In this document: in pieces, positions 2 to 63,516 of the stretch
Position numbering within the stretch: the first letter of the stretch is position 1
Layout of the letters: each line of letters begins with the position of its first letter
Made by a program: the position numbers and the translations under genes
Notes under the pieces: model-generated
Seen by the model: the letters and a program-made list of their open reading frames with translations, nothing else
Told to the model about the DNA's origin: nothing
Databases searched by the model: none
NCBI GenBank assembly: GCA_965242485.1
Contig: CBDESM010000003.1
Coordinates: 1,549,362-1,613,361 of the forward strand
Direction: 5' to 3'
Length of the DNA: 64,000 bases
Source of the DNA: Dehalococcoidia bacterium
Lineage (GTDB): Bacteria > Chloroflexota > Dehalococcoidia > Bin125

Positions 2-481
2 TCATTCCGCGACCCAGACACTGGCCAAACACACACCTACAACCAATACAACACAAAATCAACAAACAGAACCAATCAGCAATTCCTTGCAGCCTTTGAG
101 CAACATCTCCCTGCTGGCACAATAGAGACAGATTGCTATAGACTATGTGAGTTTCGGTATGTTGATCTAGATGAATCGCCAAATTGTCTTTCGTTTGAAA
201 AATTACGAGAAATAGGTCATGCCCCTGTAGGCGCTTGGGCTCCCACGGATAATCTGCCTTGCACTGGAGATTTCCACTCAAAGATTATCGATAATATATT
301 TGCTGTACTACCGTTATCGCCCGAGGTCTGTATTGTAAGAAATGGAAATCCTCACCCTTACATCGCAGGTTTAGCATTTCAAAGAACTCCGAGCATTCCC
401 CCCTTTATCATTGTCTTTGAGGATAATAAACGAACCGATTCGGGATACCTTGCATCTCTTCTGCAAACAGAGGTGCAATGA
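2..481 (+). CDS. Hypothetical protein, C-terminal fragment entering from upstream, in AT-rich segment
   Basis: Open frame from the window edge to the TGA at 479-481; GC is far below the rest of the window; no recognisable motif. Confidence 0.3.
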   Translation, partial: SFRDPDTGQTHTYNQYNTKSTNRTNQQFLAAFEQHLPAGTIETDCYRLCEFRYVDLDESPNCLSFEKLREIGHAPVGAWAPTDNLPCTGDFHSKIIDNIFAVLPLSPEVCIVRNGNPHPYIAGLAFQRTPSIPPFIIVFEDNKRTDSGYLASLLQTEVQ

Positions 482-899
482 GCTATGCCATGTCAATCAA
501 GCTTGGCATGAAGAGCAACAATTGCGATTAGATTCACTGTTTCATAGAATCAATAGAGTCAATAACTTCAACGACAGCAAACATGGAAAAGAATTCATTG
601 ACATCATAGGATTTACAACGACAGAGAATGGAACACTGGCACTGCCAACAGGCAGCATATATCGGGATATATATCACAGAAATAACGAAGGATGGGCCCG
701 TAATACCCTCGAGCTTGCAGCCGAACTTTGCGCTATATATTTAATAGATGCCATGGGGGAACCGAGTCCATATGAATGGCATCGATATAATATCGGGAGA
801 TTGCCGCAAAGGCAAAAATTTGACGTTGGCAAATACCTGACCCCCGAAGTTGTTGAGTGGCTGGAGACCTACATGATTCTGCCGGAGATCGCGGACTGA
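411..899 (+). CDS. Hypothetical protein (AT-rich island)
   Basis: 162-aa ORF in roughly 43% GC DNA; no recognisable domain; start uncertain because it overlaps the upstream partial ORF. Confidence 0.35.
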   Translation: MSLRIINEPIRDTLHLFCKQRCNELCHVNQAWHEEQQLRLDSLFHRINRVNNFNDSKHGKEFIDIIGFTTTENGTLALPTGSIYRDIYHRNNEGWARNTLELAAELCAIYLIDAMGEPSPYEWHRYNIGRLPQRQKFDVGKYLTPEVVEWLETYMILPEIAD

Positions 900-1172: not shown

Positions 1173-3059
1173 TCAGAGGATTCCGGGGGCGGCATCGAGG
1201 TCGCCGAGGCTGCCGAGATCGGGCGCGAGGGGCGGTGTGAGCGGTGGCGGGACTGCTGCGTCCGCGGGGGCGGTTGCAGGAGCGGCTGGGTGCTGGCCGG
1301 CGGCGCGGGCGAGTTCGTGCTGGAAGGCGGCGCGTTCTAGGAGCCAGCGGCGGTGGCGGGCGATGGCGGCTTCGGGGTGCTCGTCGCCGATGTACTGCTC
1401 GAGGTAGCCGCGCTGGTCGAGCGGATCCAGCGGGTCGTTGAGGCGGGCGCGGCCGTGCTCCTGGATGGCGATGCGCTGGGCCTGGCTGTAGGGGTCGATG
1501 CGGACGTCGATGTCGAGCGAGGGGATGCCGGCGGGGTCGACGCCGACGACGGTGTCGCGGAGGAGGCGGCCTTCGCGGGTGCAGGCGAAGACCCAGACGG
1601 GCTCGCCGAAGCCGCCGTCGGCGGCGGGCTTGGACATGACCATGGCCATGTTGCGGAGCATGGTGCGGACGGCGCGTGCCTGCTGCTGCTTGAGGTGCTG
1701 GACTTGGGCGTTGCGCGCGGAGAGGAGGAGGTTGAGCGTGTGCGGGCGTGTGTTGGGGCCGGCCTCGCCCTGGAGGATGGCGCCGGTGTCGGGCGCGGCG
1801 GCGGCGAGGTCTTCGGCGGCGACGCGCATGAATTCGATGAAGGCGGGATCGAGGCTGAAGTCGATCTTTTCGAGCGATGCGCCGGCGGGGAGGGAGCGGG
1901 CGGCCGCGGCCGAGGCGCTGACTTGGACGCGGACATCGTCGTCGTCGGTCTCGTAGCCGCCGCCTTCGAGGCGGATCCAGTAGAGCGGGACGGCGGCCTG
2001 GTCGGCGAGGACGCGGGCGAGGGAGCGGTCGTAGTCGAACATCGGTTTGACGCGGTAGACGCCTTCGAGCAGCGGTTCCCAGCGGCGGAGCGGGTCGGGA
2101 TGGTCGTTGACGTCGGCCGCGGCGATGGCGAAGGGCGGCATTTCGTAGGGGTGCGGGTGCGATTTGACGAGGGTCCAGCCGCCGTGTTCGGGCGCGGCGA
2201 GCTCGTAGTAGCGGGAGCGGGTCCAGAGCGCGGCGACGCGGATGCGCCCGCCCCAGCCGGCGGCGGAAGGGTCGGCATCGGACGGGACCCCGCCGGGGAC
2301 GGCAATTTCGAGGGCTGGGCGGCCGCGTCCGCGCTCGGGGCGGAGGTCGATGCGGTCCTGCGCGGCGAGGGCGGCGCGGTACTCGGCGAGGCCGATCTCG
2401 CGGAGGACGAGGGCGACGCCGATGCCGTTGGGCGCGAGGCGGTCTTCGATGAAGGCGAATTGGTCGGGGCGGACGACCTCGATGCGCCAAGGGAAGCCGG
2501 CGCGGGCCTTGGCGCGGCGGTCGCGTTCGCGGCGGGCGGCGAAGGACTCGGCGCTCGGGCCGCCGGCATCCGCGGACGGGAAGGGCGGCAGCTGGTCGGG
2601 GGAGCGCTGCCAGTGGAGGACGCCGTAGCAGAGGCAGACCTGGCCGTAGGCGAGTTCGCCTTGGATGCCGGCGGCGGAGCGTTCGTCGGCGAGGACGAGG
2701 CCGTGCTCGAAGACCTGTTCGAGGTCGTTGGCGGAGCGGCGCGCGGCTTCGGAGTCGTTGGGCGGCTCGACGTGGACGCGGAGCGGATGCTCGCGGAGGC
2801 GGACGCGGAGTTCGGACCAAGTGCGGCGTGCGAGGTCGGTCTGCCAGGCTTTGAACTCGTGGAACGGTTCGGGCAGGCGCGGGTCGGCGGCGGGGGCGTT
2901 GAAGAGGTGCTGCTCGCGTTCGCGGATGCGTTCGTGGAGGACGGCGAAGCGGGCCCGGCCGCCGCCGGCGGGGGCGCTGGCGGTTGACGCGGCGAGCCGG
3001 GCGATCAGGTCGGAAAGTTGGCCGAGGGAGAGGGGCGTCTCCGGAGCGGAGGGAGGCAT
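1173..3059 (-). CDS. Hypothetical 628-aa protein, no recognisable catalytic motif
   Basis: Long ORF with non-degenerate composition (not simply Arg/Pro-rich), co-directional with the upstream amidohydrolase gene; no P-loop or obvious nuclease motif. Confidence 0.55.
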   Translation of the reverse strand: MPPSAPETPLSLGQLSDLIARLAASTASAPAGGGRARFAVLHERIREREQHLFNAPAADPRLPEPFHEFKAWQTDLARRTWSELRVRLREHPLRVHVEPPNDSEAARRSANDLEQVFEHGLVLADERSAAGIQGELAYGQVCLCYGVLHWQRSPDQLPPFPSADAGGPSAESFAARRERDRRAKARAGFPWRIEVVRPDQFAFIEDRLAPNGIGVALVLREIGLAEYRAALAAQDRIDLRPERGRGRPALEIAVPGGVPSDADPSAAGWGGRIRVAALWTRSRYYELAAPEHGGWTLVKSHPHPYEMPPFAIAAADVNDHPDPLRRWEPLLEGVYRVKPMFDYDRSLARVLADQAAVPLYWIRLEGGGYETDDDDVRVQVSASAAAARSLPAGASLEKIDFSLDPAFIEFMRVAAEDLAAAAPDTGAILQGEAGPNTRPHTLNLLLSARNAQVQHLKQQQARAVRTMLRNMAMVMSKPAADGGFGEPVWVFACTREGRLLRDTVVGVDPAGIPSLDIDVRIDPYSQAQRIAIQEHGRARLNDPLDPLDQRGYLEQYIGDEHPEAAIARHRRWLLERAAFQHELARAAGQHPAAPATAPADAAVPPPLTPPLAPDLGSLGDLDAAPGIL

Positions 3060-19475: not shown

Positions 19476-19526
19476 TTAGCGTTGTCGTGGTCTGTGTCTT
19501 GGGCGAATGTCGGCCCTTCAGCGGCT

Positions 19527-19557
19527 CGACTGCTGGACAGCAGTCGAGCCGCACGGC
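19527..19557 (+). terminator. GC-rich hairpin (13-bp stem GGCTCGACTGCTG/CAGCAGTCGAGCC) after the hydrolase gene
   Basis: Perfect inverted repeat about 50 bp downstream of the stop; no T-tract. Confidence 0.3.
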
Positions 19558-19620
19558 CCTATGCGGCGCTTACAATCCCCCCGAGAAAGAGACGGGCCAA
19601 TTCAAGACGGGGCGAACGGG

Positions 19621-20337
19621 ATGACCAGTTCGGACAACAAGGGGGTCGACAGCGGATTCATCGAGTTGGCGCAAGAACAGCTGGATGGCGTTGAGGCGCG
19701 GCTCGGCGAGATCGAAGTCGAGATGAAGAATCTGGCGCGCGAGCGCGGCACCTTGCTCAATAACCGACTCCACTTGCAAGGCTTGGTCGGCGTTTCCAAC
19801 GCCGCGAACGACGGGGTGCAGCGTGGCGGCAACCTTGATGTGCAGGCGACTCGCGACGCGGTTGTTGACGTAATCCGCGCTCACGGACGTCCCATGCACT
19901 TCCGCGACGAGATCTACCCGAGCCTGGCAGCAGCCGGGCACGAGATCGGCGGGCAAGATCCGGCAAGCACGCTGCTCTCGCGGATGACCCCCGACAAGCG
20001 CCTGCATCGAACCGGGCGCGGCGAATACGGCCTCGCCGAGTGGTCCGATCCGGTCCCGTCTCCGGTCCGCGCGGTTTCTGTAGCGGAGAGAGGAGGTTCG
20101 AAGGTGGTTGCGGCAGCAGTGCAAGCCTTACGAGATGCCGGCGAACCTCTCCACTACCGAGAAATCACGAAGCGGACGCTCAGAGGCGGATTGTGGGAGA
20201 CGTCAGCCAAGATGCCGAACGACGTGATGGCACGCGCATTGAACAAGAGCATCGAGAAAAGCGGCAATAAATCACCTGTCATCAAGATTCGCCCCGGCAT
20301 ATTCGGGCTTCGCGGGCGCGACGAGGCGGACTCCTAA
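19621..20337 (+). CDS. Hypothetical protein with two tandem winged-helix (HARE-HTH/Mrr-N-like) domains after a coiled-coil N-terminus
   Basis: Two repeats each ending in a G(R/L)(G/R)EYGL(A/R) hairpin motif; lower-GC leader. Confidence 0.45.
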   Translation: MTSSDNKGVDSGFIELAQEQLDGVEARLGEIEVEMKNLARERGTLLNNRLHLQGLVGVSNAANDGVQRGGNLDVQATRDAVVDVIRAHGRPMHFRDEIYPSLAAAGHEIGGQDPASTLLSRMTPDKRLHRTGRGEYGLAEWSDPVPSPVRAVSVAERGGSKVVAAAVQALRDAGEPLHYREITKRTLRGGLWETSAKMPNDVMARALNKSIEKSGNKSPVIKIRPGIFGLRGRDEADS

Positions 20338-30435: not shown

Positions 30436-30530
30436 GCCACGAGTTGATGCCGGGGTGGTCCGCTTGAGGCGGGCCTGAGAGCACACCCGCTGAACCTGAT
30501 CCGGGTAATGCCGGCGCAGGGAGCGTTCCA
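30436..30530 (+). promoter_or_regulatory. TPP (THI-box) riboswitch
   Basis: GGGGUG ... CUGAGA ... ACCC ... GAACCUGAUCCGGGUAAUGCCGGCGCAGGGA matches the THI-element consensus directly upstream of thiD. Confidence 0.75.
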
Positions 30531-30544
30531 GGTCCGCCCGCAGC

Positions 30545-41789: not shown

Positions 41790-41846
41790 GCATCTGATAC
41801 CCCGGACGCAAAGCCGGGCTGCCGCGTACTCGCGCCACAAGAGGAG

Positions 41847-42183
41847 GTTGGTGGCCCGGGGCAGAGTCGAGCTGCCGGCGCCGCGCCTCCGGCAATGGCA
41901 GCCAGTGCCTGCTCGCATCGCAAGCGGAAAGGTTGGTGGCCCGGGGCAGGGTCGAACTGCCGGCACCACGCCTCCGGCAATGGCAGTCAGTCGTGTGCTG
42001 GTGGCGCAAGTGGGAAAGGTTGGTGGCCCGGGGCAGAGTCGAACTGCCGGCACCACGCCTTCGGCAATGGCAGTCAGTCGTGTGCTGGTGGCGCAAGTGG
42101 GAAAGGTTGGTGGCCCGGGGCAGAGTCGAGCTGCCGGTGCCGCGCCTTCGGCAATGGCAGTCAGTCGTGTGCTGGTGGCGCAA
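41847..42183 (-). repeat. Four tandem ~87-bp repeats, each containing a degenerate tRNA-Phe 3' portion (T-arm plus acceptor plus CCA)
   Basis: Unit starts at about 41847, 41921, 42008, 42095; each carries GGCAGTTCGACTCTGCCCCGGGCCACCA on the minus strand. Confidence 0.6.
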
Positions 42184-42259
42184 GTGGAAAGGTTGGTGGC
42201 CAGGGGCAGAGTCGAACTGCCGACACCACGATTTTCAGTCGTGTGCTCTACCAACTGAG
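42184..42259 (-). tRNA. tRNA-Phe (anticodon GAA)
   Basis: Cloverleaf; anticodon loop CTGAAAA; T-loop GTTCGACTC; CCA encoded. Confidence 0.85.
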
Positions 42260-42307
42260 CTACCTGGCCGCGGGCACCAATCATACAGTGCAGCGGGAGG
42301 CCGAGTG

Positions 42308-42625
42308 ATGCCGCCGGACGTTGACGAGCTGGATTGGAGTGCCGACATTCCGTCGAAGCTCGGACGACACGGCTTGACGACCGACGATGCGCAGGACGTG
42401 TTCAGAATCCGTCCGCTGCTCGCGTGGCAGAAGGAGGAATGGCAGTTGGGAGACGATGGACTGCTCCGTCTGAGGCCTCGACGCGTCAGGATGATCGGCC
42501 CTGACTACTCGGGGCGCTTCCTGACGTTTATCCTTGAAGCACCGGACGATCGTCGCGTGTCACAGATCGTCTCGGGCTGGCCGGCTACGCGGCGCGACAT
42601 CGCCCGCTACCGCCGAGCCAGATGA
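42308..42625 (+). CDS. brnT: BrnT-like (DUF497) toxin of a type II toxin-antitoxin module
   Basis: GRHGLTTDDAQDVF and GRFLTFILEAPDDRRVSQIVSGWPATRRDIARY resemble the BrnT family; toxin-first gene order. Confidence 0.55.
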   Translation: MPPDVDELDWSADIPSKLGRHGLTTDDAQDVFRIRPLLAWQKEEWQLGDDGLLRLRPRRVRMIGPDYSGRFLTFILEAPDDRRVSQIVSGWPATRRDIARYRRAR

Positions 42626-42641
42626 TCCGCGCGACTGCACA

Positions 42642-42929
42642 ATGACCGACTACGACGACTGCATCTGCCCGAATGACAGCAGGGACCACCTCCCCCACTG
42701 CGCCTTCGCCGATGAGGACCAATGGGAAGAGGGCGAGATCATCGAAGGCAAGACCGTGAGGATGCATGTGCGCGCCGTTTTCGAAGGCGACGAGTACCGC
42801 GCTTTCTCGGCGATGATGCGCGCGAACGGCGAGTGGCATCCCAACCGCTATCTCAAAGACTTGGCGATGCGCGCCATCGAGGAATGGCAGGCAGTGCCGC
42901 AGCACTCTGCCGTCGCGGAGGGCGACTGA
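42642..42929 (+). CDS. BrnA-like ribbon-helix-helix antitoxin paralog 1 with Cys/His-rich acidic N-terminal extension
   Basis: DDCICPNDSRDHLPHC N-terminal segment, C-terminal RHH (KTVRMHVRAVFEGDEYRAFSAMMRANGEWHPNRYLKDLAMRAIEEW). Confidence 0.5.
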   Translation: MTDYDDCICPNDSRDHLPHCAFADEDQWEEGEIIEGKTVRMHVRAVFEGDEYRAFSAMMRANGEWHPNRYLKDLAMRAIEEWQAVPQHSAVAEGD

Positions 42930-42935
42930 CCGGGC

Positions 42936-43232
42936 ATGCCTGCTACCGCTGATCCGGGCTGTCGTCTAGACGACTGCATTTGCCCGGCAGACAGACGGGA
43001 TCACCGGCCCGATTGCCCGTATTCCGATATCGGGCTCTGGGACGACGAAGAAGATGGCGTTGGCATGATCGTACGGGTCCCGTTCGAGCAGCAGCAGTAC
43101 GGCGCGCTCCGCGCGATGATGCGCGCGCATGGCGAGGACAACCCCAACCGTTTCGTTCGAGACATGATGCTCCGCGCTATCGAGGAATGGCAGGCGGTGC
43201 CGCCGCACTCCGCCGTCGCGGAGGGCGACTGA
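42936..43232 (+). CDS. BrnA-like antitoxin paralog 2 (diverged copy)
   Basis: DDCICPADRRDHRPDC ... MIVRVPFEQQQYGALRAMMRAHGEDNPNRFVRDMMLRAIEEW. Confidence 0.5.
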   Translation: MPATADPGCRLDDCICPADRRDHRPDCPYSDIGLWDDEEDGVGMIVRVPFEQQQYGALRAMMRAHGEDNPNRFVRDMMLRAIEEWQAVPPHSAVAEGD

Positions 43233-43238
43233 CCGGGC

Positions 43239-43547
43239 ATGGCCTCCGCTGTTGATCTGGAAGATCGCCTAGACGACTGCATCTGCCCGAATGACAGCAG
43301 GGACCACCTCCCCCACTGCGCCTTCGCCGATGAGGACCAATGGGAAGAGGGCGAGATCATCGAAGGCAAGACCGTGAGGATGCATGTGCGCGCCGTTTTC
43401 GAAGGCGACGAGTACCGTGCTTTCTCGGCGATGATGCGCGCGAACGGCGAGTGGCATCCCAACCGCTATCTCAAGGACTTGGCGATGCGCGCCGTCGAGG
43501 AGTGGCAGGCGGTGCCGCCACATTCCGCTGTTGCGGAGACTGATTAG
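43239..43547 (+). CDS. BrnA-like antitoxin paralog 3 (near-identical to paralog 1)
   Basis: Near-identical DNA to 42650-42930. Confidence 0.5.
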   Translation: MASAVDLEDRLDDCICPNDSRDHLPHCAFADEDQWEEGEIIEGKTVRMHVRAVFEGDEYRAFSAMMRANGEWHPNRYLKDLAMRAVEEWQAVPPHSAVAETD

Positions 43548-52063: not shown

Positions 52064-53047
52064 ATGCAGCCCGAGATCAAGCAGTTCCTGACCTACCTCA
52101 CGACCGAGAAGGGCGCGTCCGCGCACACCATCTCGGCCTATCGCAACGACCTCAACCAGTTCCGCACCTTCTGCGCGGACCAGTCGCGCGGCCTCGTCGC
52201 CGCCTCCGCCGGCAACGGCGCGAACGGGAACGGCCGCAACGGGCACGCCAACGGCAACGGGGCCGCCAAGTCCTGCGACAGCGTCGACGCCGTCGACGCC
52301 AACATGCTCACCGCCTACGTCGCCCACCTGCGCGAGCAGGGCTACGCCCAGGCCACCGTCGCCCGCAAGGTCGCCGCGGTCAAGAGCTTCTTCGGCTACC
52401 TCTCGGCCGAGGAACTGGTCGCCGCCAACCCGGCCCGCGAGATGCCCGCCCCCCGCGTCGGCCGCTCGCTGCCGCGCGCGCTCTCGATCGACGAGGTGGA
52501 CGCGCTGCTCGAACAGCCCGGCCGCAAGGACACCCCGGAGGCGCAGCGCGACCGCGCGATGCTCGAGCTGCTCTACGCGACCGGCGTCCGCGTCTCCGAG
52601 TTCGTCAACCTCGACCTGACCTCGGTCGAGCTGCGCAACGGCTCCGCCTCCGTCCGCTGCATCGGCAAGGGCGACAAGGAGCGGCTGATCCCGATCCACG
52701 ACGCCGCCGTCTCGGCGCTCTGCACCTACCTCGAACAATCGCGCCCCAAGCTGGCGCGGCGGCGCGGCGAGCGGGCCCTCTTCGTCAACCGTCGCGGCGA
52801 GCGCCTCACCCGCCAGGGCATCTGGCTGATCCTCAAGAACTACGCCAAGGAAGCCGGCATCGACGACGTCACCCCGCACACCCTGCGCCACTCCTTCGCC
52901 ACCCACATGCTGCGCGGCCGCGCGCCCCTGCGCAGCGTCCAGGAGCTGATGGGCCACGCCAACATCTCGACCACGCAGATCTACACGCAGCTCACCGACG
53001 ACCACATCCGCGAGGTCTACGACCACGCCCACCCGCGCGCCAGCTGA
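52064..53047 (+). CDS. xerD: Tyrosine recombinase XerC/XerD
   Basis: SAM-like N domain; catalytic R..HxxR..Y (TPHTLRHSFATHML ... STTQIYT). Confidence 0.8.
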   Translation: MQPEIKQFLTYLTTEKGASAHTISAYRNDLNQFRTFCADQSRGLVAASAGNGANGNGRNGHANGNGAAKSCDSVDAVDANMLTAYVAHLREQGYAQATVARKVAAVKSFFGYLSAEELVAANPAREMPAPRVGRSLPRALSIDEVDALLEQPGRKDTPEAQRDRAMLELLYATGVRVSEFVNLDLTSVELRNGSASVRCIGKGDKERLIPIHDAAVSALCTYLEQSRPKLARRRGERALFVNRRGERLTRQGIWLILKNYAKEAGIDDVTPHTLRHSFATHMLRGRAPLRSVQELMGHANISTTQIYTQLTDDHIREVYDHAHPRAS

Positions 53048-55034: not shown

Positions 55035-55111
55035 TGGCGCGCCCGGCAGGACTTGAACCTGCGGCCTCTGCCTCCGCAGGGCAGCGCTCTAATCCGCTGA
55101 GCTACGGGCGC
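55035..55111 (-). tRNA. tRNA-Arg (anticodon reads GCG)
   Basis: Cloverleaf; anticodon loop CTGCGGA; T-loop GGTTCAAGTCC. Confidence 0.7.
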
Positions 55112-55153
55112 GGGTCGCGTCGCGGCCGCGGGGGCCGCGCTGCGGGTGATGGA

Positions 55154-55240
<87 letters not shown>

Positions 55241-55319
55241 ACGCGGCTCGGCGCGCCATGCGCGCCGCTGCTCCTCGCTTTCGGCGGCGCCCCGCCGGGC
55301 GTCCGCAACGTTGGGCGGC

Positions 55320-55397
55320 TGGTGGGCGATGCAGGACTTGAACCTGCGGCCTCTCGGATGTGAACCGAACGCTCTAGCCAGCTGAGCTAATCGCCCC
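55320..55397 (-). tRNA. tRNA-Val (anticodon CAC)
   Basis: Anticodon loop TTCACAT; T-loop GGTTCAAGTCC. Confidence 0.8.
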
Positions 55398-55432
55398 CTT
55401 GGTTCGGCAACGCCGCCCGGCGCTTCGCGGCG

Positions 55433-55508
55433 GTGGTAGCAGCGGCAGGACTCGAACCTGCGACACGGGGCTTATGAGTCCCCTGCTCTGCCAACTGAGC
55501 TACGCTGC
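55433..55508 (-). tRNA. tRNA-Met (anticodon CAT)
   Basis: Anticodon loop CTCATAA; T-loop GGTTCGAGTCC; G1.U72 wobble. Confidence 0.7.
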
Positions 55509-55707
55509 CGCGCCTCACGGCCGGCGGGCCCGCGCGGCGGCGCCCGCCTCCCGCAACGCTATCCGCATCGCCCCCGCTCGTCAAAGCGCTCCGCCGGACC
55601 CCGCCGGCGGGCGCGCAGCGCGGCCGTTCGCCTACGATCAGGTGCAGACAGGCAGAAGCGGCCCGCACCCGGCGCCGCGCCGGCCCGCGCAGGGGAGCGC
55701 GCGAACG

Positions 55708-57502: not shown

Positions 57503-57578
57503 GGGCGATTAGCTCAGCGGCCAGAGCGTCCGGTTTACACCCGGAAGGCCGGAGGTTCGACCCCTCCATCGCCCACCA
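57503..57578 (+). tRNA. tRNA-Val (anticodon TAC)
   Basis: Cloverleaf; anticodon loop TTTACAC; T-loop GGTTCGACCCC; CCA encoded. Confidence 0.85.
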
Positions 57579-57638: not shown

Positions 57639-58286
57639 GTGGCGATGACCCGCTCGACACCGCCAATCACTTGGACTCAGGCGCTTGGTGCGCCAACCCC
57701 AAGCGCATCGCTGCTCGGTATGCGAAAAGGTGATGTGGTGAAGGGCTGCGTCTGCGAAGTACGGAGTGCCTCGGTCAATGTGAGATTGATGAACGGGGAA
57801 TATGGCTGGGCACACGACCTAGGACTTGGGCTCGATGGTGACGAGCAGCCACAGGACCGATACCGCGAGGGAGATTTGGTATCTGCGGAGGTGACCGGTC
57901 TCGATCGTGGCAATGAGTGCGTCACGTTGTCGATTCGCTGGCACGTGCCCAACCCTTATCAATGGCTGTCGCCAGCGTCTACGGCTTCCAGATATCCTGC
58001 TCCGCAGCTGAATGGGATGCAATCCGGCTCTTGGTTGTATGCGTCCATCCGAGAAGTGCGGGAGACCGGGCTGCGCGTAGTTGCGCAGAATGTGCCCGGT
58101 TGGATTGATCGTCGGGATGCCGGCATCTCGGAGGAGGCCGCCGTTGCTGACTACCACCGAACTGGCGGGGCCATATGGGTGCGGGTGACTGGCGTGAATC
58201 ATGTCGGTGGGGAATTCACTGCGCGGGCGGTTTCGCCACCGTCCCCCCAGCCAGTCGCCGGCCGTTGGTACGAAGCTATCCGTTAG
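57639..58286 (+). CDS. Small protein with two S1-like OB-fold domains; paralog of the repeat unit of the large S1-Schlafen protein
   Basis: Lower GC than its neighbours; [16 protein letters not shown] resembles [16 protein letters not shown] of the large-protein repeats. Confidence 0.5.
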
Positions 58287-58305
58287 CCGTGGCGAGGAGT
58301 TGCGC

Positions 58306-59989
58306 GATGACCGCTGAAGAACAGCTGGCGAGCTGGCGCGAGGGGACCTATGGGAAGGCGGTCTCGCGGTTTCCGGAGCGGCGGGGGGAGTTCCGGCGCT
58401 CTTCGGGGGGGGCGCTGGAGCCCGTCTATGTGGGGGGGGACGGGGATGGGGTGCCGTTGCCGGGGGAGTTCCCGTATACGCGGGGGATTCAGCCGACCAT
58501 GTACAGGGGGCGGCTGTGGACGATGCGGCAGTACGCGGGGCAGGAGGATGCGGAGGCCTCGAACCGGCGCTACCGCTTCCTGCTCGAGCAGGGGCAGACG
58601 GGGCTCTCCGTCGCCTTCGACCTGCCGACGCAGATCGGCTACGACTCCGACGCGCCGATGGCCGAGGGCGAGGTGGGCAAGGTCGGCGTCGCGATTGATT
58701 CCATCGACGACATGCGGACGCTGTTCGACCAGATCCCGCTCGACCGGGTGACGACCTCGATGACGATCAACGCGACCGCGGCGATCCTGCTCTCGCTCTA
58801 CGCCGCCGTCGGCGAGGAGCAGGGCGTGGCGCTGGACAAGATCGGCGGCACGGTCCAGAACGACATCCTCAAGGAATACGTCGCGCGCGGCACCTACATC
58901 TACCCGCCCGCGCCCTCAATGCGGCTGATCACGGACACCTTCGCCTACTGCACTGAGAACGTGCCGCGCTGGAACACGATCTCGATCTCCGGCTACCACA
59001 TGCGCGAGGCCGGCTGCACGGCCGCGCAGGAGATCGGCTTCACGCTGGCCAACGCCATCGCCTACGTCGAGGCCGCGCAGGCCGCCGGGCTCGCCTTCGA
59101 CGACTTCGGCCCGCGCCTCTCCTTCTTCTTCGCCTGCCACTCCAATTTCCTCGAGGAGGTCGCCAAGTTCCGCGCCGCCCGCCGGCTCTGGGCGACCATC
59201 GCCCGCGACCGCTTCGGCTCAGCCAACGAGCGCGCCCAGATGCTGCGCTTCCACACCCAGACCGGCGGCGTCACCCTGACCGCGCAGCAGCCCGACAACA
59301 ACGTGATCCGCACGGCCCTGCAAGCGCTCGCCGCGGTGCTCGGCGGCACCCAATCGCTGCACACCAACTCGCTCGACGAAGCGCTCGGCCTGCCCTCCGA
59401 GCACGCCGTCGAGATCGCCCTCCGCACCCAGCAGGTGATCGGCTACGAAAGCGGCGTCGCCGACGTGATCGACCCGCTCGGCGGCTCCCACTACATCGAG
59501 CAGACCACCGACCAGCTCGAGGACGAAGCCCGCCGCATCATCGACCAGGTCGACGCCCTCGGCGGCGCCGTCTCCGCCATCGAAGACGGCTTCCAGCAGT
59601 CCGAAATCCTGGCCGCCGCCACCGAGTTCCAGCACGAAGTCGAGACCGAAGTCGAAGCCGCCCGCGCCGGCGACGGCTCCGCCGGCGCCAAAGGCCGCGT
59701 CATTGTAGGCGTCAACCGCTTCCAGACCGAAGAACCCACCGACGTGGAGATCGTCCGCGTGGACCCCAGCGTCCGCGAACGCCAAACCGAAAAACTCGCC
59801 CGCCTCCGCGACGCCCGCGACGAAGCCGCAGTCCGCGCCGCCCTCGACCAGATCTCCCAAGCCGCCGCCGGCGACGAAAACCTGCTCCCCCTGATGCTCA
59901 ACGCCGTCAAAACCTCCGCCACCCTAGGCGAAATCTCCAACGCCCTCCGCCAAGTCTGGGGCGAATACCGCGAACGCATCGTGGTCTAG
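58306..59989 (+). CDS. Methylmalonyl-CoA mutase family protein, substrate-binding (N-terminal TIM-barrel) domain only
   Basis: MCM large-subunit catalytic-domain sequence ([20 protein letters not shown]); no B12-binding domain in this ORF. Confidence 0.8.
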
Positions 59990-62643
59990 CGATCCTCGTC
60001 CTCAACGGCAGCACGCTGGTTGCGCTTCACCAAATGATCACGGATTGCCTCGCGGGTATGGAGTCGCTCGGTGCTATCTCCTTTGCGGGCATAGAATTCT
60101 GATTTGCCCTTCACGATCCAGTTTGCCCCGGATTCGGGGCCCGGATCACAGCTGACGATCAACAGGGTTTTACCACGGATAGTCACTGTTTCCCAAACAA
60201 CAAGCGTCACGATGTCAAAATCTTCCAAAGGGTTGCCTGAATGAATATTCTGCAGATTACTGTGAAGGATCTGATTCGCGCTATCAATCTTCTTATCGAT
60301 AGTATCACCTGCCAAACCTTGATCTGCTTCAAGGCCGACCACATCTCGGTTGCTGTCTTCAATGCCGATGATCAGCCGACCTCCATCTGTGTTGAGAAAA
60401 CCGACGACTGTGCGAATCGCCTCGCGAGTCATTTCACGTGTATCGTCAGCTGATTCATCTCCTTTCAAGACCGCTTTGAATTCTAGCGTTTGCGATTCTG
60501 ATTCTCCAATCAGTGCCTCAAGCCACTGGTCGCGGTGTTCGGCAGTGATATGGTGGTTGTCATAGTCAATGCTGGTTACACGAATCGGGATAGTTTCTCC
60601 GATCCGATCGCGACGGGATCTGCTGGGCTTGTCAGATTCGGGGATATGTTCAGGAGAGATTATGGCCAGCAGCCCAGAACCGAGGTCAACTTGGGCTGCC
60701 CTTGAGCTGACCGTGCGCAGTTCTGCATTGACCTCGCTACCAACTTCAAACTTTGCCACGAGATCCTGCCAGCGAGCATCAAAATCCTTTAGCGAGACGA
60801 TTGCGGAACCTCCCTCGGGGTCAACAGATTCGATGACGACACCAAGAGGGTGGTTGGCCTTGAAAGACATAAACTCGGCTGCATCAGCCGGGCTAAATTC
60901 TTCTTCCCGAATATATCCTGTGATCGGACCAAGATCGACCGCGACACGTTGTTCATCATCTGGCATCGCAGCCTCAGGGATGACCACAGCATTAGACACG
61001 AGCACCCCATCTGCGAATTGTGCGACATAGTCTTTCCAATCGCCTATAGCACGGCGATGCGATAACCGGTTGGCCAAGCCATCATCACCGATATCAAGTA
61101 CGACGACATCGATCTCCGAATTGGATTCGAAACGAAATTGCCGTTCAACAAAGCAATCTAGCTCATGATTAGGAATGAAAACATTCGTACTCGCAACAAG
61201 GACGTTGATGCCACCGATTCGGCTACCTCGCACTACAGCTTTGATCGTCGCGCCCACGGCGTGGGCCTTGAGCTCGGCTGCTCGTGATTGATTGCTGAGA
61301 ATAATCATGCGACTCTCACGGTCGATCTGCCAGACGAACAGGTTCTGCACAATGTCCCTGGTTTTGTAGAGGTCCGTTGCCATTTCACCTGTTGGCACCG
61401 GCCATTCGCCTGCGGGGACAACGCCGATCACACCATTGATGTCTACCCAGAGCGAATTGGGTAGCACATCCGTGGCTGTGCCTGAGACGCCGACACCGAC
61501 ATAGAGCTTATCAAGCGTGTCAAGGTAGCCAGGCATGTTGCGACGGATGGAGAGTCCGAGATGACGAGAGTCCCGGTCGATCCACCAGACGAACAGGCCC
61601 TGCACTGTGTCGCCTGTCTTGTAGAGGTCTGTGGCCATCTCGCCGGTTGGCAGTGGCCATTCTCCTGTAGGGACGGCACCAATCACGCCATCAATGTCTA
61701 GCCAGAGCGTGTCGGGCAACACTGCCATGGCGGTGCCGGAAACGATGTCGCCGACATGGTACTTGTCAAACGCATCAAGGTAGCCAGGTACATTGCGACG
61801 GATAGAGAGTCTAAGTTCCCGAGAGTTGCGGTCGGTCTGCCAGACAAACAAGTCCTGCACTGTATCACCTGTTTTGTAGAGATCTGTAGCCATCTCACCG
61901 GTTGGCAGCGGCCATTCTGCTATAGGAACGAAGCTGATTACGCCATTGACGTCCAACCAGAGCTCGTCAGGTAGCACTGTTGTGGCGGTGCCGGAGACGA
62001 CGTCGCCGACGCGGTGCTTGTCAAGTACATCAAGGTAGCCGGGCGCATTGCGACGGATAGAGAGTCCGAGTTCCCGAGAGTTGCGGTCGATCCGCCAGAC
62101 GAACAGGTCCTGCACAGTGTCACCGGCCTCGTAGAGGTCGGTTGCCATTTCGCCTGTAGGCAGCGGCCATTCGGCTGTGGGGACAAAGCCGATCACGCCA
62201 TCAATGTCCAGCCAGAGCGTACTTGGCAGCACCGCCATGACGGTGCCGGAGACGACATTGCCGACACGGTGCTTGTCAAACGCATTGAGGTAACCGGGCG
62301 CATTGCGGCGAATGGAGAGTCCGAGATGGCGCTCCTCACGGTCGATCCGCCAGACGAACAGGTCCTGTACAGTGTCACCGGCCTTGTAGAGGTCGGTTGC
62401 CATTTCGCCTGTAGGCAGCGGCCATTCGGCTGTGGGGACAAAGCCGATCACGCCATTGATGTCCACCCAGAGCTCGTCAGGCAGCACCTCAGTGACAAGG
62501 CCAGTGACGTTGTCGCCGACATGGAGTTGCCCGAGCCGATCGTTGGTTATCGGGGAGGGAGGGCGAGCAGTCATTCCCCTATCACGTGATGGGCGCGGCA
62601 ACTTCTGGGGCGGCTTCCGGCGGGACTTCTTGGGCTTGGGCAT
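59986..62643 (-). CDS. Multi-S1-repeat protein with C-terminal Schlafen/AlbA_2 domain (putative RNA-sensing defence or stress protein)
   Basis: Lower-GC gene; about 8 S1-like OB repeats, 5 of them near-identical 74-aa units; C-terminus [11 protein letters not shown] ... [31 protein letters not shown] matches the AlbA_2/Schlafen N-terminal domain; start at MPKPKK. Confidence 0.7.
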
Positions 62644-62697
62644 GGTGGGGAGTTTAGGGCATGTCGTAGACTGCGCTGCCGTAGAGGAGGGTCGGTC

Positions 62698-63516
62698 ATG
62701 GCATTGACGCGGATTCATCACATTGGGGTGGCGGTGCGGGATGCGGATGCTGCCGCGGCTGTTTGGGCTGAGGCGTTCGGGCTTTCTGTGGCGCTGGATG
62801 CGGAGCTGGAGGAGCAAGGGGTGCGGGGGGTGATCTTGCCGTTGGACAACTGCGAGATCGAGCTGCTGCAGCCGACGCGGGAGGGGACGGGGATCGCGAA
62901 GTACTTGGAGGCGAACGGGGAGGGGTTCCATCACGTCTGCTTCGAGTCGACCGATGTGGCGGGGGATTTGCGGGCGGCGGCGGACTCGGGGATGCAGATG
63001 ATCGACCGGGAGCCGCGGGTGGGGCTGACGGGGATGATCGGGTTCATCCATCCGCGCGAGAATCACGGGGTGCTGGTCGAGTACGCGCAGCCGCCGGAGG
63101 ATGCGCCGCGGCACGGCGGGCCGGCGGGGGACGACGCGGCGCACGCGCTGCACCACATGACCGTCGCGGTGCACGACGTGGCGGCCGTGGCGGCTGAGTT
63201 CGCGGGCAAGTTCGGGTTCGAGGGGCGGGAGCCGTTCGAGAACGCGGGGCTGGGGATCGCGGGGCAGTTCACGGATTTGGGGCCGACGGCGATCGAGCTG
63301 ATCACGGGGCTGCCAGGAGCGGCGGAGGGGCCGTTGCAGAAGCGGCTGGCGAATCAGGGCGAGGGGATGTTCATGATGGCGCTGACGGTGCGCGACGCGG
63401 AGGCGGCGGTGGCGCGGCTGCGCGGGCACGGGATGACCGTGACGGACGCGGGCGCGGGCGCCTTCATCTCCCCCCGCGGCACGTTCGGCGCGCGGGTGCG
63501 GCTCTCTGAGGCCTGA
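62698..63516 (+). CDS. Tandem VOC (glyoxalase-fold) protein, likely methylmalonyl-CoA epimerase
   Basis: Two VOC modules (HHIGVAVRD ... HHMTVAVHD); genomic association with the mutase-family gene. Confidence 0.65.
   Translation: MALTRIHHIGVAVRDADAAAAVWAEAFGLSVALDAELEEQGVRGVILPLDNCEIELLQPTREGTGIAKYLEANGEGFHHVCFESTDVAGDLRAAADSGMQMIDREPRVGLTGMIGFIHPRENHGVLVEYAQPPEDAPRHGGPAGDDAAHALHHMTVAVHDVAAVAAEFAGKFGFEGREPFENAGLGIAGQFTDLGPTAIELITGLPGAAEGPLQKRLANQGEGMFMMALTVRDAEAAVARLRGHGMTVTDAGAGAFISPRGTFGARVRLSEA

Follow-up and report, generated by a model that had tools for sequence, protein, structure and literature searches.

An S1-array Schlafen protein encoded in a swap-prone slot between mutase and epimerase genes of a Dehalococcoidia bacterium

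We analyzed a stretch of 64,000 nucleotides (nt) from a Dehalococcoidia bacterium (assembly GCA_965242485.1, contig CBDESM010000003.1; this whole stretch is referred to as the window), in which a gene of low GC content is found between the genes for a methylmalonyl-CoA mutase and a methylmalonyl-CoA epimerase. The open reading frame (ORF) at 59986-62643 on the minus strand encodes a protein of 885 amino acids (aa), in which a polybasic tail at the N-terminus is followed by eight S1/OB modules and, at the C-terminus, by an SLFN_AlbA_2 domain. In near-identical relatives the same slot holds unrelated alleles, and in several relatives genes of known defence type are found close by. Judging from the sequence and from the analogy to characterized Schlafen proteins, we propose with moderate confidence that this S1-Schlafen protein is a single-protein effector of the prokaryotic Schlafen (pSlfn) type, most likely a nuclease that would act against phages or mobile elements by abortive infection or growth arrest.

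The coordinates and the length of the gene, which had been proposed by a model that saw only the letters and their translations (the sequence-only reading), were exact. The longest minus-strand ORF spanning the region extends upstream of position 62643. The start codon at 62643 is nevertheless supported, because about half of the related proteins open with a similar polybasic tail: in 25 of 53 family proteins, seven or more of the first 20 aa are K or R, and a PRPxR motif is found in many, often after the tail. At its other end the gene shares the tetranucleotide CTAG, which contains its TAG stop, with the stop codon of the convergent mutase gene. The parts of the gene and its flanks are as follows.

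59986-62643, minus strand: whole S1-Schlafen gene, 885 aa and stop codon.
62575-62643, minus strand: polybasic N-terminal tail, aa 1-23, recognized by the family conservation of a K/R-rich start.
61270-62544, minus strand: five tandem 85-aa S1-like units, aa 34-458, found with TRF, a repeat finder and Pfam S1.
60526-61269, minus strand: three divergent S1/OB modules, aa 459-706, lying in the conserved core common to the whole family.
59989-60525, minus strand: C-terminal Schlafen/AlbA_2 nuclease-like domain, aa 707-885.
60475-60498, minus strand: predicted catalytic motif E716-SQTL-E721-F-K723 (Ex4ExK), invariant or nearly so in the family and superfamily alignments.
60355-60357, minus strand: D763, predicted third acidic residue, family-invariant and aligned with the GVDD segment of SLFN14.
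58307-59989, plus strand: mutase flank, methylmalonyl-CoA mutase N-domain gene, 560 aa, GC content at third codon positions (GC3) 0.92, assigned with Pfam/NCBIfam.
62698-63516, plus strand: epimerase flank, methylmalonyl-CoA epimerase with double VOC, 272 aa, GC3 0.90, assigned with TIGR03081.

The C-terminal domain matched SLFN_AlbA_2 (PF04326) over aa 716-861 with an E-value of 5.8e-16 and 59.5 bits (cutoff 25.3). An AlphaFold2 model of the last 215 aa (predicted local distance difference test, pLDDT, 87.4) showed the AlbA_2/Schlafen fold. In a Foldseek search against the PDB all matches with E-values of at most 3e-3, the top 26, had this fold; they include DIP2311, SLFN5/11/12/13/14, the tRNase domain of rSAMD9 and a RecG-related AlbA_2 domain (2kyy). 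Furthermore, the C-terminal profile of the family aligned to the nuclease lobe of the solved SLFN14, SLFN11, SLFN5, SLFN13 and SLFN12, with the ExxxxEFK…N.GG….G..D of the window protein placed over TESTHVEFK…NTQGGYVLIGVDD of SLFN14. Eight residues (E716, E721, K723, N751, G754, G755, G760 and D763) do not vary within the family, and the same residues are invariant or nearly so among 143 representatives of the wider superfamily. The Schlafen domains of the family fall into at least five sequence subtypes, which are 22-30% identical to that of the window protein.

For prokaryotic Schlafens, Ex4(E/D)xK has been reported as the conserved active site (PMC13056530), and mutation of the E17/D22/K24 triad of CbCash abolishes tRNA cleavage (PMC13462974). 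E716/E721/K723 of the window protein equals the pSlfn motif and corresponds to the CbCash triad. We conclude that the protein has the sequence and fold of a pSlfn nuclease domain, and nuclease activity is predicted. Outside the family, the closest Schlafen domains are found fused to the C-terminus of restriction or defence enzymes (HsdR, GmrSD_N/DUF262, MZB, ResIII+REase, BrxL and N6_Mtase).

In front of this domain lies the S1 array, as had been read from the letters, and both Pfam families involved, PF00575 and PF04326, scored well above their cutoffs. The S1 profile (PF00575) matched with an E-value of 5.2e-34, and Spt6_S1 matched aa 631-699. The estimate of about eight modules held: a repeat hidden Markov model (HMM) built from the family found seven units, an eighth at aa 537-626 was matched to the repeat profile by hhalign (probability 93%, E 2.6e-7), and the AlphaFold2 model of aa 454-885 (pLDDT 85.9, predicted TM score 0.66) revealed three beta-barrels followed by the Schlafen domain. 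On the contrary, the claim of five near-identical 74-aa repeats from a recent amplification did not hold. The repeat period is 255 nt (85 aa), and the five tandem units share 59-81% aa identity and 67-82% nt identity in pairwise comparison. Pairwise synonymous divergence (dS) is 0.3-1.3, which rules out a recent tandem amplification, and the ratio of nonsynonymous to synonymous divergence (dN/dS) is 0.14-0.61. We therefore consider the array old and under purifying selection.

The modules combine the PF00575 match with a five-stranded OB barrel, the features of S1 domains, and structurally match the S1 domains of RpsA, PNPase, RNase II/R and RNase E; binding of single-stranded RNA (ssRNA) is predicted. 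A consensus of 328 family units includes GLWLDVdG..G…EL.LadGES…RYaVGeTI..LFVW..D…R.L.LSvRRNAPGY, and the number of 85-aa units per family member ranges from 5 to 14.

The family comprises about 40-50 proteins. A word-indexed search recovered about 42 relatives of the same layout (598-1327 aa), all of them singletons and derived from metagenome assemblies or from genomes of 2.0-3.5 Mb. An exhaustive HMM search over 1.84 billion representatives returned 11,191 AlbA_2-type proteins, with a tight S1-Schlafen group of about 27 representatives, below which the scores are those of generic C-terminal Schlafen domains. S1 arrays are found in another four of the 121 representatives that follow (P0285, P0356, P0314 and P0266); other partners in this set are Response_reg, N6_Mtase, BrxL, GmrSD_N, LRR, UvrD and others. 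In a genome scan that used a type-A alignment over species representatives, a set that does not contain the genome of the window, the named match was the Dehalococcoidia metagenome-assembled genome OZ251529.1, with at least three S1-Schlafen paralogues. Repeat number differs between paralogue copies at equal position in different genomes. Within the window, tblastn found no further S1-Schlafen paralogue. In the viral contigs of IMG/VR we found no family member and one weak match (32% identity) to the Schlafen domain alone, and a phage origin of the gene was rejected on this ground. As a separate observation, P0254, a protein of 2337 aa from a 401-kb NCBI contig, has 22 Schlafen-profile matches in a tandem array of eukaryote-like sequence and is unrelated to the S1 family.

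The composition of the gene sets it apart from its surroundings. Windowed GC content is 0.50-0.61 over S1-Schlafen compared to 0.68-0.74 in the flanks, and GC3 is 0.594 for the gene and 0.51 for its Schlafen part, whereas the mutase and epimerase genes have values of 0.916 and 0.901. The z-score of the gene is -9.9 in relation to 44 ORFs of the window that look native (GC3 0.914 ± 0.032); the lower GC content that had been noticed by eye was therefore atypical also when computed. In every genome checked the family gene has a lower GC3 than its native neighbours (0.72-0.81 vs 0.86-0.92), with the clade of the window as the extreme of the family (0.57-0.61).

The flanking genes had been named correctly from the sequence, as Pfam and NCBIfam matches confirmed, with the epimerase reaching 157.7 bits for TIGR03081 (cutoff 115). 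The mutase ORF spans 58175-59989 with a true start probably at 58307, and 54 nt separate the epimerase gene from the S1-Schlafen start codon. Relatives of the mutase carry Chloroflexi or Dehalococcoidia names. Comparison of related loci (L numbers) placed an S1-Schlafen gene in the mutase-epimerase slot of at least ten loci, namely L082, L083, L084, L086, L087, L089, L090, L092, L093 and the window. In L085 the order is mutase-DinB-epimerase, the gap between DinB and epimerase is empty, and a GmrSD_N-Schlafen gene follows one gene beyond.

The loci closest to the window reveal how the content of the slot changes.

59990-62693, no strand assigned: exchangeable cassette, with the limits at which DNA similarity to the near-identical L087 and L082 ends.

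The mutase DNA of L087 is 97.3% and its epimerase region 95.7% identical to the window. Similarity ends at the mutase stop codon and restarts 4 nt before the epimerase ATG, and the L087 allele in between, which encodes 1476 aa with 13 repeats and a different Schlafen subtype, has no detectable DNA similarity to window positions 59990-62693. L082 likewise has flanks about 97% identical to the window around an unrelated cassette, of which the first approximately 50 nt, encoding the basic tail, alone are in common. In L083, the Schlafen part is 91-95% identical to that of the window and the repeat array is remodelled. Alleles of other relatives in this slot encode 555+, 562, 598, 620, 866, 871 and 1160 aa. 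Since the slot is filled in at least ten loci and its allele varies between near-identical flanks, we conclude that it is long-standing and swap-prone, rather than the product of one recent insertion. The insertion event suggested by the sequence-only reading is thus only partly right.

We found no direct or inverted repeats flanking the cassette, and a transposon-like insertion was rejected for this reason. No integrase or transposase dedicated to the cassette was found either; the nearest tyrosine recombinase (52064-53047) has a native GC3 of 0.98 and is syntenic in relatives. In L087, the start of the epimerase gene seems to be duplicated over 43 nt, but the two copies border a stretch of N, and the duplication was discarded as a scaffolding artefact. 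With flanking repeats absent and this duplication artefactual, exchange of alleles through homologous recombination in the conserved flanking genes would be the simplest mechanism.

Other intergenic sites of the operon, which comprises mutase, epimerase, B12 and MeaB genes, also vary between relatives. Upstream of the mutase we found BilA/BilD (L083, L086), GmrSD-Schlafen (L087, L089, L090) or an MBL-fold gene (L085, L086), and downstream slots hold arylsulfotransferases, GmrSD-Schlafen, ThsB_TIR or a KAP NTPase. GmrSD-Slfn, BilA/BilD, ThsB_TIR or KAP NTPase genes lie within 10 kb in L083, L086, L087, L089 and L090, and none of these defence-type genes lies within 10 kb in L084, L092, L093, L001 and L091. 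In this lineage, the intergenic sites of the operon behave like a defence hot spot.

L083 13616-15010, L086 4328-7218 and L089 5400-5843: slots with genes of the set BilA/BilD, ThsB-type TIR, KAP NTPase and GmrSD_N-Schlafen.
L090 4768-6294, L085 11105-13363 and L087 1-828: further slots with the same gene set.
57639-58286 of the window, plus strand: small S1 gene, 215 aa, GC3 0.63 (z = -8.8), Pfam S1 at aa 29-100.
L083 2218-8339, L084 13481-15274, L087 8070-12570 and L092 16938-20455: arylsulfotransferase insertions.

The small S1 gene lies directly after a tRNA-Val gene (57503-57578) and upstream of the mutase, the place that is taken by the MBL-fold gene in the more distantly related L085 and L086. 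Its S1 unit resembles the units of the array (32% identity). Seven related clusters were found; in the window, L084, L092 and L093 the gene stands beside the mutase, with S1-Schlafen on the other side. It is absent in L082, L083 and L087, which keep S1-Schlafen, and was rejected as an obligate partner. Independently of this, the closest relatives of the window have 1-3 tandem arylsulfotransferase genes between the epimerase and the B12-binding subunit.

Several features elsewhere in the window deserve mention. An 87-nt tandem repeat at 41845-42230, with 4.5 copies and 91% matches, extends into the 3' part of a tRNA-Phe gene (42194-42269, minus strand) and looks like partial tRNA copies left by serial integration. 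Beside it, at 42534-43547, are three tandem paralogous ORFs of 131, 98 and 102 aa with a DDCICP…EEWQAVP motif and lower GC content; the one that was searched had no Pfam match. The lowest-GC kilobase of the window is 1-1000 (0.47), with a 162-aa ORF at 411-899 (plus strand) that has no Pfam match, and an ORF of 628 aa at 1173-3059 (minus strand) has native GC3 and no Pfam match. A protein of 276 aa encoded at 19507-20337 (plus strand), where the regional GC content is lower (about 0.64), carries two HARE-HTH domains (PF05066, E 6.5e-17); this domain also occurs in restriction-associated proteins. A thiamine pyrophosphate (TPP) riboswitch is found at 30441-30539 (plus strand; RF00059, 66.9 bits, above the gathering score). 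A tRNA cluster at 55035-55509 (minus strand; Arg-GCG, Leu-CAG, Val-CAC, Met-CAT) lies between UvrC and a DUF179 gene, and UvrC is also adjoined by the tyrosine recombinase at 52064-53047.

The RNA-binding array joined to a Schlafen active site, the relatives in restriction and defence, and the turnover of alleles beside defence genes make a pSlfn-type defence nuclease the most likely function. Consistently, bacterial AlbA_2 clades have been reported to be significantly associated with defence systems (PMC12680541). From these data we infer nuclease activity, an RNA target, a mechanism of activation and a defence phenotype. The Schlafen domain would be a metal-dependent endoribonuclease with an active site of E716/E721/K723 and D763 and, by analogy to pSlfn, Cash and mammalian SLFN/SAMD9, might cut tRNA or other RNA and thereby halt translation. 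Nucleic-acid binding would fall to the polybasic tail together with the eight S1/OB modules. These might sense long or foreign ssRNA and gather Schlafen domains into the required oligomer on one RNA or, as a second option, recruit or hold the substrate RNA. The gene itself would be kept in a fixed slot between core genes, with divergent alleles traded by recombination in the flanks. Characterized Schlafens become active upon formation of dimers, oligomers or filaments (PMC13462974; PMC13056530), and a long S1 array would therefore be a natural device for co-assembly or for holding substrate. A more specific version is that the array is a direct RNA sensor, with 5-14 modules on long foreign or aberrant ssRNA aligning Schlafen domains and triggering tRNA cleavage, and that the gene is a multi-allelic immune locus at fixed slots. 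We put this forward tentatively, as a possibility that is more doubtful than the effector function as such; if true, it would be the first RNA-licensed prokaryotic Schlafen.

Several points weigh against a defence function. Without flanking repeats, a dedicated integrase or a family member on viral contigs, there is no direct sign of mobility, and no known defence gene was identified within 10 kb in the window among those ORFs that were scanned with Pfam. PADLOC (2023) gave no match for the S1-Schlafen protein, although this result is uninformative because the database is older than the pSlfn papers. The slot is filled in much of the lineage and paralogues are found at conserved positions, to which a lineage-specific cellular function would fit too. 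Moreover, fusions of S1 domains to nucleases are classic housekeeping RNases.

These points lead to the best of the alternatives, a lineage-specific housekeeping or regulatory RNase whose S1 array would hand mRNA, rRNA precursors or tRNA to the Schlafen endonuclease, serving turnover, stress-induced translation control or ribosome quality control as S1-bearing RNase E/G, RNase II/R and PNPase might suggest. The structural likeness of the modules to known S1 domains, the filling of the slot in at least ten loci, the other paralogues at conserved positions and the two negative searches for a defence context would all agree with such a role, and 30% of the published pSlfn genes are not defence-associated (PMC13056530). 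However, unrelated alleles between 96-97% identical flanks, repeat numbers from 5 to 14 with at least five effector subtypes, a GC3 about 10 standard deviations under that of native genes, a slot that is empty in L085 and known defence genes in neighbouring slots are atypical of housekeeping RNases. We therefore regard this alternative as unlikely.

A non-catalytic role is much less probable. AlbA_2 might serve solely as a DNA/RNA-binding module, as in many AlbA_2 regulators and the 'DBD' of SAMD9, in which case the protein could act as an RNA chaperone or scaffold or belong to the nucleoid or to RNA granules. Regulators of the DIP2311 type are indeed among the top structural matches, and some mammalian SLFNs lack nuclease activity (PMC13462974). 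But E716, E721, K723 and D763 stay invariant while the domain diverges to 22-30% identity, the signature of a maintained active site, and the AlbA_2 of SAMD9 is itself a tRNase (9o0d; PMC12680541). Least probable of all, the protein would be the toxin in a selfish or addiction module, or would be exported to act on the RNA of another cell, with the R/K-rich N-terminus as targeting or uptake signal. In favour of this, the polybasic N-terminus is conserved in about half of the family, the composition is foreign-like and the small S1 protein, a facultative neighbour in four loci, could act as a modulator. Against it, we saw neither a secretion system nor a signal peptide, an antitoxin-like overlapping gene or a hallmark of mobile elements, several loci retain S1-Schlafen without the small S1 gene, and a polybasic tail is equally expected for RNA binding.

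A pSlfn-type effector at this locus would matter for the sensing of infection. The fused sensor domain decides what a bacterial Schlafen detects, and the triggers characterized in the cited papers are a phage protein and a cyclic nucleotide. The S1-array fusion suggests RNA as trigger or guide, which would parallel the nucleic-acid licensing of mammalian SAMD9 and SLFN11 and add a new sensing logic to an ancient immune module. In addition, the locus gives a clear example from nature of one allele taking the place of another in a fixed slot flanked by core metabolic genes, in an uncultured Chloroflexota (Dehalococcoidia) lineage outside the E. coli-based assays of the cited papers. Were the housekeeping alternative correct, the protein would represent a cellular RNase of a new kind, less surprising but still undescribed.

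Among known systems, multi-S1 proteins of the bS1 (RpsA)/Rrp5 type differ from the window protein. Its units follow a consensus specific to the family and are joined to a nuclease domain, and rpsA models score it at 145-164 bits with cutoffs of 577-624 (TIGR00717 145 vs 577). With RNase E/G, RNase II/R and PNPase it has in common that one or more S1 domains would feed ssRNA to a nuclease in one polypeptide. The catalytic domains differ, however, being RNB, RNase E or PH there and the unrelated Schlafen/AlbA_2 here, and the window protein had no Pfam or NCBIfam match to RNase E catalytic, RNB or PH domains. Furthermore, those enzymes have one or two S1 modules and are encoded by conserved housekeeping genes, whereas the window protein has eight modules and a hypervariable locus.

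Fold and catalytic segment align with those of mammalian SLFN11/13/14 and SAMD9/9L, a group compared here together with the bacterial Avs9. SAMD9 and Avs9 also combine an AlbA_2 nuclease with OB-fold nucleic-acid binders, and nucleic-acid sensing is thought to license the tRNase. In contrast to the two-lobed core of mammalian SLFNs, the window protein has a single Schlafen lobe. According to Pfam it lacks the helicase, SIR2, STAND NTPase and TPR parts of these proteins, including the STAND layout of SAMD9/Avs9 with P-loop NTPase and TPR between AlbA_2 and OB, and its OB folds are of S1 type and in tandem.

Another known system is Cash, the CRISPR-associated Schlafen (Csx15-Slfn, PMC13462974). 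Both have an acidic-acidic-lysine triad (E17/D22/K24 in CbCash, E716/E721/K723 in the window protein). The source of CbCash is likewise a Chloroflexi bacterium, and the oligomerization-gated tRNA cleavage of CbCash offers a mechanistic template. Unlike Cash, the window protein lacks a cyclic-nucleotide sensor of the Csx15/CARF-like type, and the part of the window that was scanned showed no CRISPR locus; any activation would have to come from direct binding by the S1 array.

The pSlfn proteins are widespread anti-phage tRNases with many sensor fusions, described in 2025-26 (PMC13056530, PMC13462974; two 2026 papers, one with a 2025 preprint and one cataloguing 55 domain compositions). A DUF262-Slfn fusion protected E. 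coli from several phages (PMC13056530). Like RorSlfn5 (Ig-like-Slfn) and EcoSlfn7 (DUF262-Slfn), the window protein has a PF04326 domain with the Ex4(E/D)xK motif and joins, in one polypeptide, a nuclease-like domain and a module without catalytic function that presumably senses infection; DUF262/GmrSD-Slfn genes even occupy neighbouring slots in the operon of relatives. The partners named in the main text of PMC13056530 are HisKinase, HTH, DUF5929, Ig-like, DUF262 and TBP-like, compared to eight S1 modules and a polybasic tail here. The implied ligand would differ too, being RNA instead of a phage protein, and the host belongs to an uncultured Dehalococcoidia lineage. The sequence-only reading had suspected a novel architecture and a role in defence. 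Bacterial Schlafen defence as such was already published; an S1-Schlafen fusion is not named in the main texts of PMC13056530 and PMC13462974, to which the comparison extended, the table of 55 architectures lying outside it, and in the literature library searched no paper combines S1 domain, Schlafen and prokaryotic. The defence candidate is plausible and now backed by comparative context. S1-Schlafen most likely belongs to the pSlfn defence class that is already known, to which it would add a sensor part not yet described.

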